DNA of 64,000 bases from Spirochaetia bacterium (GTDB taxonomy: Bacteria; Spirochaetota; Spirochaetia; SZUA-6; Bin103), in the NCBI GenBank assembly GCA_965203905.1, contig CBDBDQ010000005.1, positions 1,632,001 to 1,696,000 on the forward strand. The letters are read 5' to 3'. Positions 9,624-16,387 of this stretch are shown one piece after another. The notes under the pieces were generated by a model. The model did not search any database, was not told where the DNA came from, and was given only the letters and a program-made list of their open reading frames with translations. Numbering within the stretch: position 1 is the stretch's first letter; every line of letters begins with the position of its first letter. The position numbers were made by a program, and so were the translations under genes.

Positions 9624-11471
9624 TCATGCGCCTGGAGTGCCGTCAAGGCGCTCGATGGCGGCGCGGCGCTGCTGGACCGCGCGCAGGCGCGCCAGGTCGA
9701 ACTTGCCGGAGCGGTCGAACTTGTAGATGCCGTTCTGCTCCTGGTAGATGTCGGTGAGCTGGGTGTAGCAGTAGCCGAACATGTCGGGGTTGTCGAGCAG
9801 TACGGCGCACAGCTTCTCGAAGCGGTCGTAGAACTCCTCGATGCTAGTGGGGCGCTCGCCGTAGCCCCACGACTCCTCGCCGGCGGCCAACTCCGGGTTC
9901 CACCAGATGCCGCCGAACTCGCTGACGAAGTAGGGCTGGCCGCGGTAGGCGATCGACCAGTCGAACGAGCCCAGCAGGCGTTCGGCGTTGCGTCCCGTCA
10001 CGCCCCAGCCGGCGCCGCTGTTCAGGTAGGGCTTGCCCTGCGCCAGGCCGGCCTGGTTGCGCGCCAGTTGCTGCGGGTCCTGGGAGTAGTCGTGGCTGTC
10101 GTAGACGTCGGCCTCCGGGACGCGGTGCGCGTAGCCGGAGGTGTCCAGAACGGGGCGCGTGGTGTCCATCGCCTTGGTGGCCAGGAACATGCCGCGGGTC
10201 ACGTCGTCCAGCGCGGTGATGCGGTCGCCCAGCGCCTGCCAGGTCTCGTTCAGCGGACACCAGCCGACGATGCAGGGGTGCGAGTAGTCCCGCTCCAGCA
10301 CCTCCAGCCACTGGGTGACGTAGTCGGGACCCGGCCGCTGGTGCTCGCCCGCGGCCGGTCCTTCGCCGCGGCAGCCCCAGTCGCCGAACTCGCCCCACAC
10401 CAGGTAGCCGAGGCGGTCGGCGTGGTAGAGGAAGCGCTCCTCGAACACCTTCTGGTGCAGCCGCGCACCGTTGAAGCCCGCCGCCATGCTCAGCTCGATG
10501 TCCTGGCGCAGAGCCGCGTCCGAGGGCGCCGTCATGATGCCGTCCGGGTAGTAGCCCTGGTCCAGCACCAGGCGCTGGAACACCACCGCGCCGTTGAGCC
10601 GGATCGCCTTGCCGTCGATGCTCACCGCGCGCAGGGCGGCGTAGGAGGCCGCCGCGTCGACCACGTTGCCGGCGCCGTCGAGCAGGGCGATGGCGACGTC
10701 GTACAGGTGCGGGTCCCCCGCCGCCCACAGCCGGCGCCGCGGTTCCGGGACCGGCAGGTCCAGGCGCGGCGCCAGGTCCAGGCCGGCACCGCACTCGGCG
10801 CGGGCGATCTCGCCTTGCGCATCGCTCAGGGTGGCGCGCAGGCGCAGCCCCGGCGCGCTGCCGGTCAGCGGCTGCTCCAGGCGGATGACCCCGTTGGCGA
10901 CGTCCGGCGTGAGCCGCGGCCGGCGCAGCGCCAGGTCGGGCACCGGCTCCAGCCACACCGACTGCCAGATGCCGGTGGTGCGCACGTAGATGGCGCCGCC
11001 GGGGCCGTAGTCGCGCGCCTGCTTGCCGCGCGGCTGCGGGTGCTCGCGGGTGTCGCGGGCGCGCACCGTGATCACCGCCTCCTCCCCGGGCCCGGCCACC
11101 CCGTGCAGGTCGCAGGTGAAGGGCGAGAAGCCGCCGCGGTGGCGCCCCACCTCGACGCCGTTCACCCACACGGTGGCGTCGTAGTCGACCGCCTGGAAGT
11201 GCAGCAGCACCCGTCGGCCCGCCCAGGCGGCGGGAAGCGTCACGCTGCGCCGATACCAAACCGCGTTCAGGAAGTCGTGGTTCTCGACCCCCGAGAGCCG
11301 CGACTCCGGGCAGAACGGCACCGTGATGGCGGCGTTCAGATCGCGTTCCAGCAACCCGCGCTCCAGGCCGCTGTCGCCCTGGTCGATCTCGAACTGCCAG
11401 CGGCCGTTGAGGCACAGCCAGTCGGGCCGCACGAACTGCGGGCGCGGGTACTCGTCGCGGGGTAGTTGCAA
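9624..11471 (-). CDS. Glycoside hydrolase family 2 (beta-galactosidase/glucuronidase-like)
   Basis: EYPRPQF, LNGRWQF, LHFQAVDY, TGIWQSVWLE, LDQGYYPDG, GFNGARLHQK, W..LNE, SEFGG, GYCYTQLTD. Confidence 0.92.
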   Translation of the reverse strand: MQLPRDEYPRPQFVRPDWLCLNGRWQFEIDQGDSGLERGLLERDLNAAITVPFCPESRLSGVENHDFLNAVWYRRSVTLPAAWAGRRVLLHFQAVDYDATVWVNGVEVGRHRGGFSPFTCDLHGVAGPGEEAVITVRARDTREHPQPRGKQARDYGPGGAIYVRTTGIWQSVWLEPVPDLALRRPRLTPDVANGVIRLEQPLTGSAPGLRLRATLSDAQGEIARAECGAGLDLAPRLDLPVPEPRRRLWAAGDPHLYDVAIALLDGAGNVVDAAASYAALRAVSIDGKAIRLNGAVVFQRLVLDQGYYPDGIMTAPSDAALRQDIELSMAAGFNGARLHQKVFEERFLYHADRLGYLVWGEFGDWGCRGEGPAAGEHQRPGPDYVTQWLEVLERDYSHPCIVGWCPLNETWQALGDRITALDDVTRGMFLATKAMDTTRPVLDTSGYAHRVPEADVYDSHDYSQDPQQLARNQAGLAQGKPYLNSGAGWGVTGRNAERLLGSFDWSIAYRGQPYFVSEFGGIWWNPELAAGEESWGYGERPTSIEEFYDRFEKLCAVLLDNPDMFGYCYTQLTDIYQEQNGIYKFDRSGKFDLARLRAVQQRRAAIERLDGTPGA

Positions 11472-11505
11472 GACGGCGCTCCTTCGTAATCATCAAAGAA
11501 TATGT

Positions 11506-11550
11506 ATACCTCAGAACGAATGTGAGGTATTATATTTTGTGAGGTATTAT
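11506..11550. promoter_or_regulatory. Operator-like repeats upstream of the AbiEi-like gene
   Basis: TGTGAGGTATTAT direct repeat at 11521-11533 and 11538-11550, plus an inverted copy ATACCTCA at 11506-11513, in an AT-rich divergent intergenic region. Confidence 0.6.
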
Positions 11551-11581
11551 CCGATACGGAGAGGCCGATCCTGGGGATGCC

Positions 11582-12586
11582 ATGACATCGCACGAAATCG
11601 CAGACCGTTCGGAGGCCGCAGTTGCGGCCGTAGTCCCGCGGTCCGTCAGGGTGCGGCGCGACCGCAAGGATGGCCACTCAATCTGGCTTAGACTCAATGA
11701 AATGTACATCAGGGTCGAGTGGCTTGGCGAGGGTGGGTTGCGCCAGGCGCGCGAGTTGCTTGCCGGCCGGAAGAATCTTCCGGACGTCGTGGTTGCCCGC
11801 CGTATGTCTCCCGGCGCGCGGGAGGCGCTCTCGGCCGCGGGAGTGGGGTGGGGCGACGAGACAGGCGCCGCTGAGATCGCGCTGGGAACGCTGATCGTCT
11901 CCAGGAGCGGGCGACCGAGTGAGGTGCCGCCGAAGCCGCCTCGGTGGACACCCTCGGTCCTTGCCGTCGCCGAGGCGCTGCTATGCGGCGGAAAGCCTAC
12001 GGTAAGCGGCGTGCAGAAGACGACCGGACTGTCCACTGGAAGCGCCACTAACGCGCTACGTGTCCTCACCGATTTTGGGCTCTTGGCGGCTTCGGCCCCG
12101 CGCGGGCGTGGCTCGGGCCGCTCCATACCCGATCAGGACCGGCTCTTGGACGGATACGCGACCGCAGCCGAAGCCATGATGCCTGCGACCGCACTCACGG
12201 TCGGCGTGACTTGGCGCGACTTTGCGGCCGGCCTGAGCGAATAGGTCATCAATGGACGAGTATTGGTATCGCGTGGGCGGCCACCGGCTCGGTAGCGGCT
12301 GTGGTGCTCGCCCCTACCTTACGGCGGTCTCGACCGGCGAAATATACATCGACCGCGAGACCGTCTCGGGACTCGAATCCGTCGCCGTGCAAGCCGGCCT
12401 GCGACGATGGAGGGGGGCAGGCTCACCCTGAGGCCATTTCCTACCATTGCAGTCAAGCGGCTGTCTGTCGTGCGGGATGGCCTGCCCGTTGCACCGTGGC
12501 CAAGGGTGTACGCAGATCTGCGTAGCGTCGGGGTACGAGGCGAGGAGGCCGCCGAGCATCTCCGGGAGGTGATCCGTGGCCGATGA
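11582..12586 (+). pseudogene. AbiEi-like (type IV TA) antitoxin/transcriptional regulator with ~3 frameshifts
   Basis: wHTH-like TVSGVQKTTGLSTGSATNAL. Reading continues across indels near 12240, 12313 and 12405 to WAATGSVAA...APWPRVYADLRSVGVRGEEAAEHLRE, a typical AbiEi_2-like C-terminus. Confidence 0.65.
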
Positions 12587-12933
12587 GCCGCGCCGCAGAG
12601 GTCGCCTGCAACCGAGGCGGTTAGAATTGCGCCGGGTGTTTGTTATCAGCCTGCAGAGGGACCGGCGCGCGCACCGCGGATCGTCGCTGCCAGCGCCAGC
12701 GGGCCGTGGAGCGAGGAGCCCAAGGAATAGCACTCGTTGCACACTGCGGGTTCGCCAAGCGGATCTTCACGAGCACGGGTGTGTGTGGGGTCAGGTGGGC
12801 CTAAGCCCTCTGAAGCGTTCTATCGGGCATCAGCGCTGACTCACGCTCAGCTTGACTGCGCGGGCGCAACCCCGACGAGATACCGACTACCAGTCCCTCA
12901 ACTAGCCTGTCCATCAAAGGCGTAAGGATCTAT

Positions 12934-13238
12934 CTACATCCTGTCGTTACAATAAGCTTGGCCGTTGCTCCGGCAGTCTTGGATGTACATAGATTCTGCG
13001 TCTGCTATAGCTCCGCTAGGCACCTCGGCCTTCGTCTGAACTATGAACGTGGCAGGGCGAGCGAGAATTGATGCAGCGGGTATTCTCATGCCCACGGACC
13101 TGACGTATCCTTTTCGGTCATACCGACGTAGACACAACGATCCTGACCATCCAAGATCACGTAGATCCCGGGTTCTTCTGGAGCTGAGTCAACGTCCTCC
13201 GGGTAGTGGTACCGCTCAGCATCATTGTGGAACGCAAT
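12934..13238 (-). pseudogene. Small GIY-YIG nuclease, frameshifted
   Basis: APEEPGIYVILDGQDRCVYVGMT (GIY...YVG) in one frame. The continuation ..ADAESMYIQD..YCND* (conserved E and N) is in another frame; the shift is near 13110. Confidence 0.65.
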
Positions 13239-13859
13239 GGTGTACAGGTGCCGCTTATAGACGCTGGCTTTCCTCCTATCTCCGGCATTATCGTCTACTC
13301 GAACCGGTAGAGGCTGGAGCTTTGAAGCCCACGACCTCGAAGTTATTATACTCGTCAACGATCGTGGACTCTGCCGGCGCTGGCAAGGAGTCAGCAACCT
13401 GCTCGGTAAGCACGGAGTCCTGACACAGCAACTGCGTCAGGCGCTCCCGATGCCGGTTGCCAGACCGTTTTGAGACAACGTCAGGATGACCGACACATCT
13501 CCAAGCGTGTCTCCTATCGTTATCAGATCGCGGGTAGTCAAGACTCCTCTCCCATTAAGTCGCTTGACGGAAGGGATGGGGCACACTTCATTATTGGGGA
13601 AGCGTGGTAATTCCCCGAAGTGAGTCGCAGGTTTGCCGCCTTCTTCACTTCAACCTTCCGTCAGTGCGGTGTTTGTTCAACGCCTTGCCTAGCCAACGGC
13701 CGGTAGGTCACGGCTTCTCAATCAAAGCTCAATTATCGATGCGGGCGTCAACCGTATCAATTTGTGCACTGGTGGCCAAGGAGACCTAGCACCGACGATG
13801 GGCGTCAAACCTATGGGAATACATACCAAAGTAACATAGGCCCCGACGCGGCCCATGCG

Positions 13860-14066
13860 CTACGGCGGGGGGAGATGATTGGAGAATCCGTCGATCACGC
13901 GCATGCCGTCGTCGTAGCGTGGTCGTCGGCCGGGACGCCGGGGAGTGTAGATCACAGGGGGGATGGCCTCGGCTATCCGAGAGTCAGTCGTCAGACCGCG
14001 GCGAATCTGGTTGATCATGCGGACCGCTTCGCGCGTCTCCCACGGGATAGAGAGTACTCGCGGCAT
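13860..14066 (-). CDS. Small orphan basic protein, 68 aa
   Basis: AAGGAG RBS 7 nt before ATG 14066 (MPRVLSIPWETREAV...). No recognisable motif. Confidence 0.45.
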   Translation of the reverse strand: MPRVLSIPWETREAVRMINQIRRGLTTDSRIAEAIPPVIYTPRRPGRRPRYDDGMRVIDGFSNHLPPP

Positions 14067-14331
14067 AGGGGCTCTCCTTGATGTGGGTACGGTTGGGCAA
14101 GGGCTGCTACCCCTGCCCAACCGATCATCGCTCTCTCCCATCATCCGATGAGCGTCGGCTTCCCCCAACAGTCTCCCACCGCTCCATAGCGATGCCGAAC
14201 ATTCCTGGAGGAAACGTGTGCAGTTCCACGAGCCCTGATCATTGCATCCTTGCGGCTACGGTGTTGATGCAAGCTGCTCTTTCGACCATGGAGCACGCCT
14301 TTCCATCAGCCTCAGCAGTCTCATGCGTTCG

Positions 14332-14643
14332 TCAGCGCCTCTCCTTTGTCGACACCATCGTCACCCTTGAGATCTTGAGCGGATGCGCCACTCCGGCTAT
14401 CACTCTTGCGCCTTGTATTTCCTCTACAATTCGCCCTTCCTCGACGAGGAATTTCAGCGATTTGATGGTCTCGCGTTGTTCCCCGATGGCCATGCGTTGT
14501 TTCCTGATGATCACGCTCTGCGTAGCCAGGGCGTATCGGCGCCGAACGTCCGCAGCCCGTAGCTCGGCAACTTCTTTCCTTAGAGCTATCTGCTGCGCCA
14601 TGGTCAAGCGCCGAACCGGGCGGATAACTGTTTTCTGGTTCAA
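14332..14643 (-). CDS. Small orphan protein with coiled-coil character, 103 aa
   Basis: AGGAGG RBS before TTG 14643, downstream of a consensus-like promoter. Helical segment QQIALRKEVAELRAAD..IGEQRETIKSLKFL. Confidence 0.55.
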   Translation of the reverse strand: MNQKTVIRPVRRLTMAQQIALRKEVAELRAADVRRRYALATQSVIIRKQRMAIGEQRETIKSLKFLVEEGRIVEEIQGARVIAGVAHPLKISRVTMVSTKERR

Positions 14644-14678
14644 TTAGAACCTCCTGCGCACAATGCGCTAAAACGTGC

Positions 14679-14841
14679 GCTTGGCACAGGAAGCAGAGTC
14701 GGGGTGCATTTCCCCGCAGGTCGTCTCCGCTTCCTGTGGTACAAGCACTGACGATGTAGAGCTCGACGGCCTGCGGCGGGCTCTACTGCAAGCAAACGTT
14801 AGTACGTAGATGCTGCCGGTTAGGCCGCGCTCTACGGTTCA
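14679..14841 (-). ncRNA. Candidate structured leader / ncRNA (three hairpins, possible pseudoknot)
   Basis: Stems CACAGGAAGC(14685-94)/GCTTCCTGTG(14729-38), GTAGAGCTCG(14756-65)/CGGGCTCTAC(14777-86), CGTAGA(14805-10)/TCTACG(14831-36). Cross-complementarity 14714-14725 with 14765-14776. Confidence 0.45.
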
Positions 14842-14847
14842 GTTGGC

Positions 14848-14877
14848 AGTGTAGCACGCGAGTGTTGTCGCTGTCAA
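14848..14877 (-). promoter_or_regulatory. Sigma70-type promoter with extended -10
   Basis: Minus strand TTGACA-18 nt-TACACT, with TGn directly before the -10. Confidence 0.65.
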
Positions 14878-14929
14878 GATACCGATCAGGATGGGCCGCT
14901 TGGCGTCAACACGCTGGACGGCCTGTTCT

Positions 14930-15353
14930 GTTTTCGTGTTTGACGAGTGCCCGAGCGTCGGGGGCGAGGAACTGGATTCACGTCTCGCGACATGGAATAC
15001 GCAAATCCAAAGCCAGAGTGGGCGGAGTTACCCATACCATAGAGAGGAATGTCGCCGGGCTGGCCTAGTTCGATATTGCGTTTGTGCTCCTCCACAACGA
15101 CGCTGGCGGTCCGATGGATGCGGCGAACGTGGTACGGGAGCGATTCGCTGACGAAATTCAAGAACTTGATACGGCGCTGAACGAGCTGCGGGCCAATTTC
15201 GCGGACCGTGATGCACAGGGGACTCAGGCCTACCTCCAGCAGATGATGAGCGACCATCCCGATCTCGATGGGATGACTCTCGCAGCAGATGCGGTACTTG
15301 CTGTCGAAGAGTTCCTACGAGGCCTGGACCCGGTCAGACGACGCGGAAACTGA
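14930..15353 (+). pseudogene. Degraded C-terminal half of a probable AbiEii-like partner of the 11582 gene
   Basis: Fragments FDEC, NVAGLA*, FDIAFVLLHNDAGG...ELRANF...AYLQQM are spread over several frames with a stop. The DIAFVL helix resembles the KDxxD region of these proteins (recalled similarity). Confidence 0.4.
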
Positions 15354-15364
15354 GATCCCGGGTG

Positions 15365-16387
15365 TCAGTCGAGGGTGACGATGGCTTTGATGACGCCGCT
15401 GTCGAGGCGGGTGTAGGTGGGGAAGTCGCCGATCAGGTCGCCGAAGGCGCTGCGGTGGGTGATCCACGGGGCGGTGTCGATGCGGCCCTCTTCGATCAGC
15501 GAGATGATGCGCCGGAAGTTGTCCGGCAGCGAGTTGCGGGTGGCGTGCAGGGATGACTCGGGGCGATGCACCGCCATGTGCGGGAACGACACCTCGCGTG
15601 CGGTCAGGCCCACGAACACCAGGCAGCCGGTGGGCGCGATGTAGTTCACCGCCTGGGACATCGACACGTTGGAGCCGGTGGCGTCGAACACCACGTTGGG
15701 CAGGTCGCCGTCGGTCAGGTCGCGGAGCTGCGCCTCGATGTCGCCCTGCGCCACCAGGGTGTGGTCGCAGCCCATCACCTCGCGCGCGAAGCGCAGCCGC
15801 TCCTCGTTGAGGTCCATGAAGATGGTGGTGGCGCCGGTGAGGCGCGCGAACTCGAAGGTGGCCAGCCCGATGGGGCCGGCGCCGATGATCAGCACCGCGT
15901 CGGCGGCGGTGGGGGCGCCGCGGTCCACGGCGTGGGCGCCGATGCCGAGGGTCTCCACCAGCGCGAGTTGCTCGAACGCGAGCCGGGTGGAGAGGTGCAG
16001 CTTGCGCGCCGGGAGCAGGAACTGCGGGCGCATGCCGCCGTCGGTGTGCACGCCCAGCACCTCCAGGGTCGTGCAGCAGTTGGGAGCGCCGCGGCGGCAC
16101 GCGATGCAGCGGTCGACGCAGTTCAGGTAGGGCTCCACCGCGCAGCGGTCGCCGGGCCCCACGTTGTTCACCTCGTCGCCCACCGCCAGCACCTCCACCC
16201 CCAGCTCGTGGCCGAGGATGCGCGGGTAGGACATGAGCGGCATCTTGCCGAAGTAGCCGCTGACGTCGGTGCCGCAGATGCCGATGTTGTGCACCTGCAC
16301 CAGCACCTCGCTGGGCGCCGGCTGCGGCGGCGGTTCGATGTCGATCATCTCGAAGCGCTCGGGTTCGCGCAGACTGATCGCCTTCAT
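15365..16387 (-). CDS. Zinc-binding alcohol dehydrogenase
   Basis: GICGTD, GHE, Cys cluster C..C..C......C, IIGAGPIG. Confidence 0.93.
   Translation of the reverse strand: MKAISLREPERFEMIDIEPPPQPAPSEVLVQVHNIGICGTDVSGYFGKMPLMSYPRILGHELGVEVLAVGDEVNNVGPGDRCAVEPYLNCVDRCIACRRGAPNCCTTLEVLGVHTDGGMRPQFLLPARKLHLSTRLAFEQLALVETLGIGAHAVDRGAPTAADAVLIIGAGPIGLATFEFARLTGATTIFMDLNEERLRFAREVMGCDHTLVAQGDIEAQLRDLTDGDLPNVVFDATGSNVSMSQAVNYIAPTGCLVFVGLTAREVSFPHMAVHRPESSLHATRNSLPDNFRRIISLIEEGRIDTAPWITHRSAFGDLIGDFPTYTRLDSGVIKAIVTLD

Follow-up and report, generated by a model that had tools for sequence, protein, structure and literature searches.

The leader on the minus strand of the window (the whole stretch of DNA that was analysed, 64,000 nt) is a member of a small and very narrowly distributed family of structured elements for which Rfam holds no match. 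The structure of the leader is supported by covariation among eight full copies of the module, and the window's own copy is supported as a genuine structured element that follows a consensus promoter. We tentatively favour the reading that the module is an mRNA leader controlled by a cis-antisense RNA of ~80 nt, which would make it a portable expression-control cassette; such a cassette would probably be a portable on/off unit for foreign genes. What is new here is the structured element, which is well supported, together with an unusual putative built-in antisense gene; its cargo is orphan.

Structure of the leader and covariation of its stems

The features of the module and of its surroundings in the window are the following (strand refers to the strand on which the feature is read):

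14848..14877, minus strand: sense promoter TTGACA-18-TACACT with an extended -10 (TG), 10 of 12 matches in the promoter scan
14806..14835, minus strand: hairpin A1, GTAGAGCGCGG..GCATCTAC, a degenerate additional copy of hairpin A
14756..14786, minus strand: hairpin A2, GTAGAGCCCGCC..GAGCTCTAC
14677..14748, minus strand: hairpin B, long and imperfect, with an inner CGGGG/CCCCG helix
14725..14738, minus strand: 5' arm of B, CACAGGAAGCGGAG, which resembles an SD ('pseudo-SD') and would be the target of the antisense RNA
14684..14694, minus strand: 3' arm of B, GCTTCCTGTGC, anti-SD-like
14681..14710, plus strand: place of the family's candidate antisense promoter, in the window TTGGCA-18-TGCATT with a poor -10 that has no A at position 2
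14656..14668, minus strand: hairpin C, GCGCA-UUG-UGCGC, adjoining the SD and present in 5 of the 8 copies
14641..14655, minus strand: SD and start, with AGGAGG at 14655-14650, a 6-nt spacer and TTG at 14643-14641
14332..14643, minus strand: orphan ORF of 103 aa with a TTG start, coiled-coil-like, putatively coding
12596..15070, no strand: segment with lower G+C that varies between strains and includes the promoter, the leader and small ORFs

The original prediction placed a strong promoter with an extended -10 upstream of three stems, an AGGAGG and an orphan ORF. The promoter was confirmed by the scan: its -35 TTGACA occupies 14877-14872 and its -10 TACACT occupies 14853-14848, separated by an 18-nt spacer ending in TG-C, and the region 11000-16000 contains 3 promoter-like sites compared with 1.1 +/- 1.1 in shuffled sequences. 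The stems before the AGGAGG are present as well, although they number four (A1, A2, B and C) and not three. A2, which is of the GTAGAGCC..GGCTCTAC type, is the conserved hairpin A of the family; A1 is found in the window only among the family copies and is followed on the plus strand by GGUUCAGUUG (4 U in 10). Hairpin B consists of a conserved base (GYGCTTG/CAAGCGC), a covarying middle helix, an internal loop on the 5' side and an apical stem-loop. Taken as a whole, the 206-nt leader of the window folds at -92.7 kcal/mol compared with -68.3 +/- 4.3 in 200 shuffles (z = -5.61). None of the 200 shuffled sequences folded equally well, in agreement with the expectation that the region would fold better than shuffled controls.

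Single-sequence folds have the same shape in all copies. In the covariance alignment of the eight copies, 86.4% of the cells are paired compared with 76.9% in shuffles, and 19 of the 40 pairs are changed on both sides compared with 9.1 +/- 2.0 in shuffled alignments (0 of 500 reach 19) and 4-7 in slid controls; these figures, which come from an alignment fitted to the tested structure and from copies that are related to one another, lean toward the structure. The changes on both sides affect 5 of the 11 pairs of hairpin A (helix 1), 10 of the 15 pairs in the middle of hairpin B (helix 3) and 3 of the 4 pairs of helix 4 of B. The base of B is conserved in sequence with zero covariation, and 4 of the 7 pairs of helix 2 are invariant. 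Homologs of the leader, whose covariation the original prediction had proposed to test, are found, and their stems covary.

A further claim concerned complementarity between the loop of one hairpin (14765-14776) and the interior of the next (14714-14725). The two strings are as quoted and complementary at 11 of 12 positions, and the window's own duplex of the A loop with the B interior reaches -24.3 kcal/mol, but the pairing is not conserved across the copies. When the A loop is combined with the B interior over the 8 copies, the mean duplex energy is -15.6 kcal/mol for cognate and -15.2 kcal/mol for non-cognate combinations. Pairs of 12-mers complementary at 11 or more of the 12 positions are found in 13 of 200 dinucleotide shuffles, and the real leader contains four such pairs. 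We conclude that the strong pairing of the A loop with the B interior in the window reflects common GC-rich words and not co-evolution.

These comparisons bear on the possibility that the leader is a riboswitch, a ribozyme, or a pseudoknot of the A2 loop with the B interior. The complementarity in the window and the strong fold of the leader speak for it, whereas the equality of cognate and non-cognate energies speaks against it, as do the small number of conserved unpaired positions and the lack of a common function among the downstream genes; we consider it extremely improbable. A ligand pocket or catalytic core is hard to reconcile with loops and junctions that vary and with downstream genes that share no theme. 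The Infernal/Rfam check that had been proposed for a riboswitch or ribozyme returned no family, either at gathering scores over the whole window (Rfam 15, 0 matches) or with E up to 10 at 14550-14950, where the 3 rows obtained are at chance level (15-20 bits compared with gathering scores of 42-90). Membership in a riboswitch class was rejected on the grounds that there is no invariant junction pocket, the loops and internal loops being variable, and that the downstream ORFs are unrelated orphans.

Distribution of the family and its genomic setting

Covariance models detect eight full copies of the module, all located in 4 of the 24 genomes of one GTDB family. One copy is the window's own, a second one lies on contig C4 of the same genome (G000), a third one in the congeneric genome G010, one more in G001, and G016 contains four; two solo copies of hairpin A are found in addition, both in G010. 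Contig C4 is plasmid- or phage-like. The two models used, R1 and R2, were built from the first-found copies and then applied in wider scans. No copy besides those of the module's own family was found in the other 68 genomes of the order (model R1), in 146 genomes of a class sample or in 150 genomes of a phylum sample (covariance models in both samples). Scans of this kind score few candidates per genome and many of the genomes are fragmented; weak copies can escape and the range may be wider.

Searches by sequence pattern gave a similar picture. A scan for the conserved 17-mer returned at least 116 stretches in genome contigs and 5 in viral contigs, and scoring of 100 of the at least 116 genome loci with R1 (the other 16 genome loci and the 5 viral loci lying outside this scoring) yielded the G010 copy only, which was already known. 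A degenerate hairpin-A pattern, applied in a single scan each to metagenomes and to viral contigs, matched 78 metagenome and 5 viral stretches, none of which is real by R2 (best score 24.9 bits). A full-text literature search for the conserved 17-mer, spelled as DNA, as its reverse complement and as RNA, found no mention of it.

The genes that follow the module have nothing in common that we could detect. Each copy is followed by a different orphan ORF, and the difference begins at the first codon. The first ORFs are 103, 168, 83, 98, 45, 58 and 51 aa long, one copy being without an ORF at the aligned start, and an all-against-all BLASTP comparison of the first ORFs of the 8 copies shows no similarity. 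The 103-aa ORF of the window has no match in Pfam, PHROG or PADLOC and no relatives were found for it, the sole strong match being an identical 53-aa gene call over residues 51-103; Atlas leads for this ORF are coiled-coil-like only (0.88-0.91, low recognition), and those for the 168-aa ORF of contig C4 are weak and regulator-like (0.89). No Pfam, PHROG or PADLOC family is common to the regions within 3.5 kb of the 8 copies. Among the neighbours are transposases, restriction-modification genes, HigBA and one integrase. The G001 copy has a 51-aa zinc-ribbon ORF next to the leader, with an IS1-like gene after it. The possibility that the leader is an end of this IS was rejected, given that homology to other IS copies begins only at the IS's own promoter and start codon; from this boundary in the sequence, we read the IS1-like element as inserted into the cargo ORF and not as the owner of the leader.

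In the window, the module is part of a strain-variable segment and lies ~200 nt from its edge. A relative's 7365-nt contig covers 10551-12595 and 15071-16998, with ~603 nt between them compared with 2475 nt in the window, and the G+C content is 0.55-0.62 in the segment compared with ~0.70 in the flanks. No terminal repeats were seen at the segment ends (12596/15070).

The position near the edge of the segment is among the observations that would fit a DNA-level element, that is, single-stranded or cruciform hairpins that serve recombination, transfer or replication of small islands. Homology also breaks exactly at hairpin A, both in the 208-nt duplication in G010, which ends at the 3' base of hairpin A, and in the extra A1 of the window; the mismatches over all stems are balanced between the strands (14 G-U compared with 17 A-C); and the fold z-scores are similar for both strands. 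We nevertheless regard such an element as decidedly improbable. The 3.5-kb surroundings of the copies have no HUH nuclease, relaxase or recombinase in common, a tyrosine integrase being present near 1 of the 8 loci only, where it converges on the module, and the module is coupled to an SD with its start codon. The hairpin A sequence (GTAGAGC..GCTCTAC) occurs only 2 times in the 8-Mb genome (7.99 Mb), unlike REP elements, and a REP/BIME-type palindrome was rejected for this reason. Similarly, the base of B (GCGCTTG/CAAGCGC) does not fit the R''/R' end motifs of an integron attC site; arrays are absent and the 2 copies in the window's genome are on different contigs, and an attC site was rejected as well.

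One more class of elements was considered in connection with hairpin A, namely an RNA anti-CRISPR or repeat mimic. Hairpin A is partly like the stem of the G010 CRISPR repeat, but the likeness is absent in G016. The repeats differ between G000/G001, G010 and G016 and hairpin A does not follow them, and this class was rejected.

Stem-loops that come right behind a strong promoter and point into a mobile-looking segment from its edge would also fit a cis-acting RNA that modifies RNA polymerase, with the island being transcribed through by processive antitermination of the HK022 put, EAR, pLS20 conAn2 or Tn916 canT kind. The known examples are stem-loop RNAs of mobile elements (PMC11658703). Against this explanation, which appears very unlikely to us, the scan of 11000-16000 found no terminator-like site on the minus strand within the island past the leader, the module goes with the SD and start codon that come next and not with long operons, and there is no link in sequence or through Rfam.

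Opposite-strand motifs and a candidate switch

The strand opposite to hairpin B carries the motif TTGnnn-17/18-nAnnnT at a homologous place in 7 of the 8 copies, that is, in all but the window. The -35 region of this putative antisense promoter coincides with the conserved base of B (GCGCTTG on the opposite strand), and the -10 hexamer follows 17-18 nt on, in the apical loop. The hexamers are TACACT, TATGGT, TAGGGT, TAGAGT, TAAGGT, GATTAT and CAGACT, with TGCATT in the window; among these eight, T is found at position 1 in 6, A at position 2 in 7 and T at position 6 in all 8, and positions 3-5 are variable. Judged by sequence, this conservation in the apical loop of B is the profile of a -10 element. 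A strict promoter scan, for which 0.1-0.3 sites are expected per 800 nt, called the antisense promoter in G010, in the C4 copy and in G001, and called none within hairpin B of the window; under the same strict rules, the sense promoter is called in the window alone among the 8 copies. The stricter motif TTG-17/18-TAnnnT occurs in 5 of the 8 modules compared with 10 of 592 background windows, and TTGAC is found upstream of the leader in 5 of the 8 copies compared with 43 of 456 background windows, binomial figures for such counts overstating independence because the copies are related to one another. The antisense -35 matches at only 3 of 6 positions in 4 copies.

Hairpin A differs between the strands. 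It is more stable on the opposite strand by 2-6 kcal/mol in 9 of 9 hairpins (in the window, A1 has -13.2 kcal/mol on the antisense and -11.4 kcal/mol on the sense strand, and A2 has -17.9 kcal/mol on the plus and -12.5 kcal/mol on the minus strand), with 15 G-U pairs on the opposite strand compared with 2 on the sense strand. The 10 nt that follow the hairpin contain 4-5 U on the opposite strand in 7 of the 9 hairpins and 0-3 on the sense strand; the window's A2 has no U-rich tail on the opposite strand. On these sequence features, hairpin A read from the opposite strand looks like an intrinsic terminator, and the conserved CC-ATAGACAG on the sense-upstream side of the hairpin would be its U-rich tail. 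The strict terminator rule (5 T in 8) made no call at hairpin A in the scans of G010, the C4 copy and G001, the U tails being imperfect. For hairpin B, neither strand is clearly preferred (the sense strand has 5 G-U pairs and the antisense strand 12). An RNA running from the candidate promoter to this candidate terminator would be 76-82 nt long and is predicted to consist of a 5' stem-loop and a terminator hairpin in 7 of the 8 copies, the exception being the degenerate copy G016d.

An explanation that dispenses with this RNA is a sense-only structured 5' leader, which would act as a stabiliser, as a site for a host RNA-binding protein or as an RNase III site; the promoter-like motif in B would then be a by-product of conserved stem and loop bases. 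The sense promoter of the window is strong, 7 of the 8 copies have at the aligned place an SD-like run that a start codon follows after 5-7 nt, and B covaries and forms a stem of ~25 pairs, which is a length that fits an RNase III substrate. At the bases of A and B the sequence itself is conserved and covariation is absent, which suggests that a specific sequence is recognised. Such a leader would, however, leave unexplained why hairpin A is the better hairpin on the opposite strand in all nine cases and has its U-rich tail there, and why T-A-n-n-n-T is found in a variable apical loop 17-18 nt from a conserved TTG. For these reasons we regard the sense-only explanation as somewhat unlikely.

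One could also turn the argument around and view the module as an opposite-strand small RNA gene that acts in trans on SD regions, adjacency to an ORF being secondary. The promoter of the gene would lie in B, its product would begin with a CU-rich stem-loop, and hairpin A would be the terminator; the predicted RNA has a shape typical of small RNAs. Conservation is higher for the candidate antisense promoter than for the sense promoter (3 loci with strict calls compared with 1), the loop of the predicted RNA, CCUGYG, is complementary to CRCAGG of the SD regions, and the first 42 nt of the RNA predicted from the C4 copy would pair with the window leader at -45.5 kcal/mol. Yet both arms of B covary, whereas the RNA would hold one arm only, and in all but one copy the SD and start codon are found at a constant position next to the module. 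We consider an RNA gene of this kind, acting mainly in trans, quite unlikely.

How an antisense RNA could act on the leader is suggested by a likeness within the leader itself. The SD region (CGCAGGAGG) has a look-alike in the 5' arm of B (CACAGGAAG), and the 3' arm (CUUCCUGUGC) is complementary to both. In the window, the 3' arm is complementary to GCGCAGGAGGT at 14652-14662 over 11 pairs, 3 of which are G-U; among the copies, pairing of the 3' arm with the SD region extends over 8-11 bp in 5 of 8, and two columns are changed on both sides. The anti-SD/SD cells are paired at 75.6% compared with 37-60% in slid controls and 72.9% in shuffles, and their covariation is weak, 89 of 500 shuffles reaching the same proportion. 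The motifs and their conservation, the covariation of the stems, the strand asymmetry of hairpin A and these complementarities are observed in the copies themselves.

In fold models, the SD of the window has a mean unpaired probability of 0.32, which drops to 0.02 when the 5' arm is blocked; in G010 the drop is from 0.46 to 0.17. The corresponding shift in SD accessibility is 0.14 in G001 and 0.00-0.12 in the C4 copy, G016a, G016b and G016d, and in G016a the closed-SD form is the minimum-energy fold already. The two-state switch of the original prediction is plausible to the extent that a potential for switching lies in the 3' arm of B, between the 5' arm and the SD region; it does not lie in the pairing of the A loop.

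Combining these elements, the reading that we tentatively favour, with the leader under the control of a cis-antisense RNA, would work in the following way. The sense promoter would give an mRNA whose leader folds into A, the long B and mostly also C, just 5' of the SD. The 5' arm of B, as an SD look-alike, would hold the CU-rich anti-SD 3' arm, and as long as the anti-SD strand is held within B the true SD would be open and the gene on. The opposite-strand promoter inside B, with the conserved base as its -35 and the apical loop as its -10, would give an antisense RNA of ~80 nt that ends at the opposite-strand hairpin A with its U-rich tail and is complementary over its whole length to the leader's 5' half. 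Pairing of this RNA with the leader would remove the 5' arm of B, and the gene would be turned off, either by the freed anti-SD strand closing the SD or by cutting of the long duplex. Both transcripts, which we derive from consensus motifs, their ends and the switching are inferred. The c4-like antisense element that had been suggested keeps its plausibility as far as antisense control is concerned, but the RNA envisaged here would be cis-encoded, on the opposite strand and with its promoter in B.

The window copy has the strongest sense promoter and the poorest antisense -10 of the family, which suggests that this copy may be mostly on, or that the C4 copy may control it in trans. A more far-reaching version, namely a self-contained plug-in switch that is recombined exactly at start codons before unrelated foreign genes and whose copies cross-talk in trans, such that the C4 copy could silence a chromosomal island gene with a decayed antisense promoter, seems unlikely to us.

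If the cis-antisense control is true, the module represents a new RNA family in which a leader switch and a built-in antisense RNA are combined in one unit, and newly acquired orphan genes can bring along their own compact control unit, independent of host regulators. It would also provide an example, open to testing, of a chromosomal island and an extrachromosomal element that cross-talk. Should the sense leader alone be real, it would remain a so far uncatalogued leader whose structure is backed by covariation and whose range is very narrow.

Comparison with known systems

The HK022 put and Tn916 canT elements are RNA antiterminators of mobile elements (PMC11658703). The module resembles them in that stem-loop RNA comes right after a promoter, close to one end of a segment that looks mobile. 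They differ in that no downstream terminators are found here, and in that the present module is coupled to an SD and start and carries promoter and terminator motifs on the opposite strand.

The c4 RNA of phage P1 and the sar RNA of phage P22 are antisense repressors; c4 is processed from the transcript of its own target and pairs through loops. The likeness is that a small gene would be controlled, in the manner of immunity, by an RNA with complementarity to the leader of that gene. In contrast to c4, the same-strand loop pairing is not conserved here, and the proposed RNA would come from the opposite strand.

In type I toxin-antitoxin systems such as hok/sok, tisB/istR-1 and zorO/orzO, a small RNA pairs to the 5' UTR. 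The module is similar to these systems in its long structured leader, in the predicted small RNA in or beside the leader, in a pairing that would take place far upstream of the start, and in its association with small genes in variable regions. It differs in its ORFs, which are unrelated and 45-168 aa long and do not form a conserved family of small hydrophobic peptides. Membership was rejected on this basis, the first ORFs being dissimilar in BLASTP and no small protein being conserved.

CopA/CopT of plasmid R1, RNA-OUT/RNA-IN of IS10 and the Inc RNA of ColIb-P9 are cases of antisense RNA control of plasmid or transposon leaders. The proposed arrangement is like theirs in that an antisense RNA of ~60-90 nt has its promoter inside the leader of the mRNA it controls, is made up of a stem-loop and a terminator hairpin, and pairs upstream of or at the SD with an effect on the start of translation. 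There is no sequence relation, and the cargo is replication or transposase genes in those systems, whereas it consists of different orphan ORFs here. Compared with the CopA/CopT kind, the antisense RNA proposed here would leave the SD uncovered and act by way of the hairpin of the pseudo-SD and the anti-SD. By analogy, the design of the leader is like that of CopA/CopT, RNA-OUT/RNA-IN and the leaders of type I toxin-antitoxin systems, and the leader is a member of none of them.

Relatives of the leader module outside the window

The related genome G010 carries on its contig C1 a duplicated 208-nt stretch, the two copies of which are 84% identical and lie 13 kb apart. Each duplicate joins the 3'-terminal part of a small ORF (...TPPKK...PKGET..PE) to hairpin A and stops exactly at the 3' base of hairpin A; hairpin B is missing from one of the two copies. 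A shortened relative on the same contig is composed of a CATAGAGTA motif, a variant of hairpin A that covaries (GTGAAGCC..GGCTTCAC) and a small hairpin, followed by GGAGG with a GTG, without hairpin B. The loci concerned, together with the second leader copy in the genome of the window (G000), are as follows.

G010 contig C1, about 5530.8 kb: L141, one 208-nt duplicate
G010 contig C1, about 5544.1 kb: L147, the other 208-nt duplicate
G010 contig C1, 1411185-1411278: L148, shortened module relative ahead of a 777-aa ORF
G000 contig C4 (a 57-kb contig): L142, second leader copy

The neighbours of L142 encode an Mrr nuclease, a pentapeptide-repeat protein, a phospholipase-A2-like secreted protein, HigB/HigA and a DnaB-like helicase, and contig C4 looks like a plasmid or phage.

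ORFs and a second promoter-like site in and beside the variable segment

The following features were recorded in the window.

11582-12244, 12211-12525 and 12407-12586: three overlapping ORFs in different frames
13086-13397, minus strand: ORF with C-terminal end ...PGIYVILDGQDRCVYVGMT
13760-13732, minus strand: second promoter-like site, TTGATA-17-GATAAT, inside the island
13743-13757 and 13800-13814: direct repeats GGGCGTCAA(A)CC(G)TAT, spacing 57 nt
14090-14123 and 13860-14064, minus strand: GC-rich 14-bp hairpin without a U tail, directly before AAGGAGAG and an ATG, and the 67-aa ORF behind it

The three overlapping ORFs run precisely up to the left boundary of the variable segment and may be a single frameshifted gene; a Pfam search with 11582-12244 returned no matches. 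Within the island, the ATG behind AAGGAGAG starts a 67-aa ORF that begins MPRVLSIPWETREAV and has a tail rich in Arg and Pro, for which a family search gave no matches. The two direct repeats flank the second promoter-like site (region 13732-13814, minus strand), an arrangement that could represent an operator or iteron-like pair.

Nuclease likeness and CRISPR repeats

A Pfam search with ORF 13086-13397 gave no matches; its terminal ...PGIYVILDGQDRCVYVGMT, after which the ORF stops, looks like the start of a GIY-YIG nuclease motif. As a separate observation, a fragment of an Eco29kI-type restriction nuclease lies immediately upstream of the leader copy in the related genome G001.

Outside the window, G000 contains a CRISPR array of ~87 repeats (GCTTCAATGAGGCCGCCGGAATTCACCGGCGGAAAC; C5:4478370-4485200) adjoined by a Cas1 gene. 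The repeat is identical in G001, while G010 has a variant of it and a second type. The repeat of G016, another related genome, is of a different type, which we take to be I-C-like.
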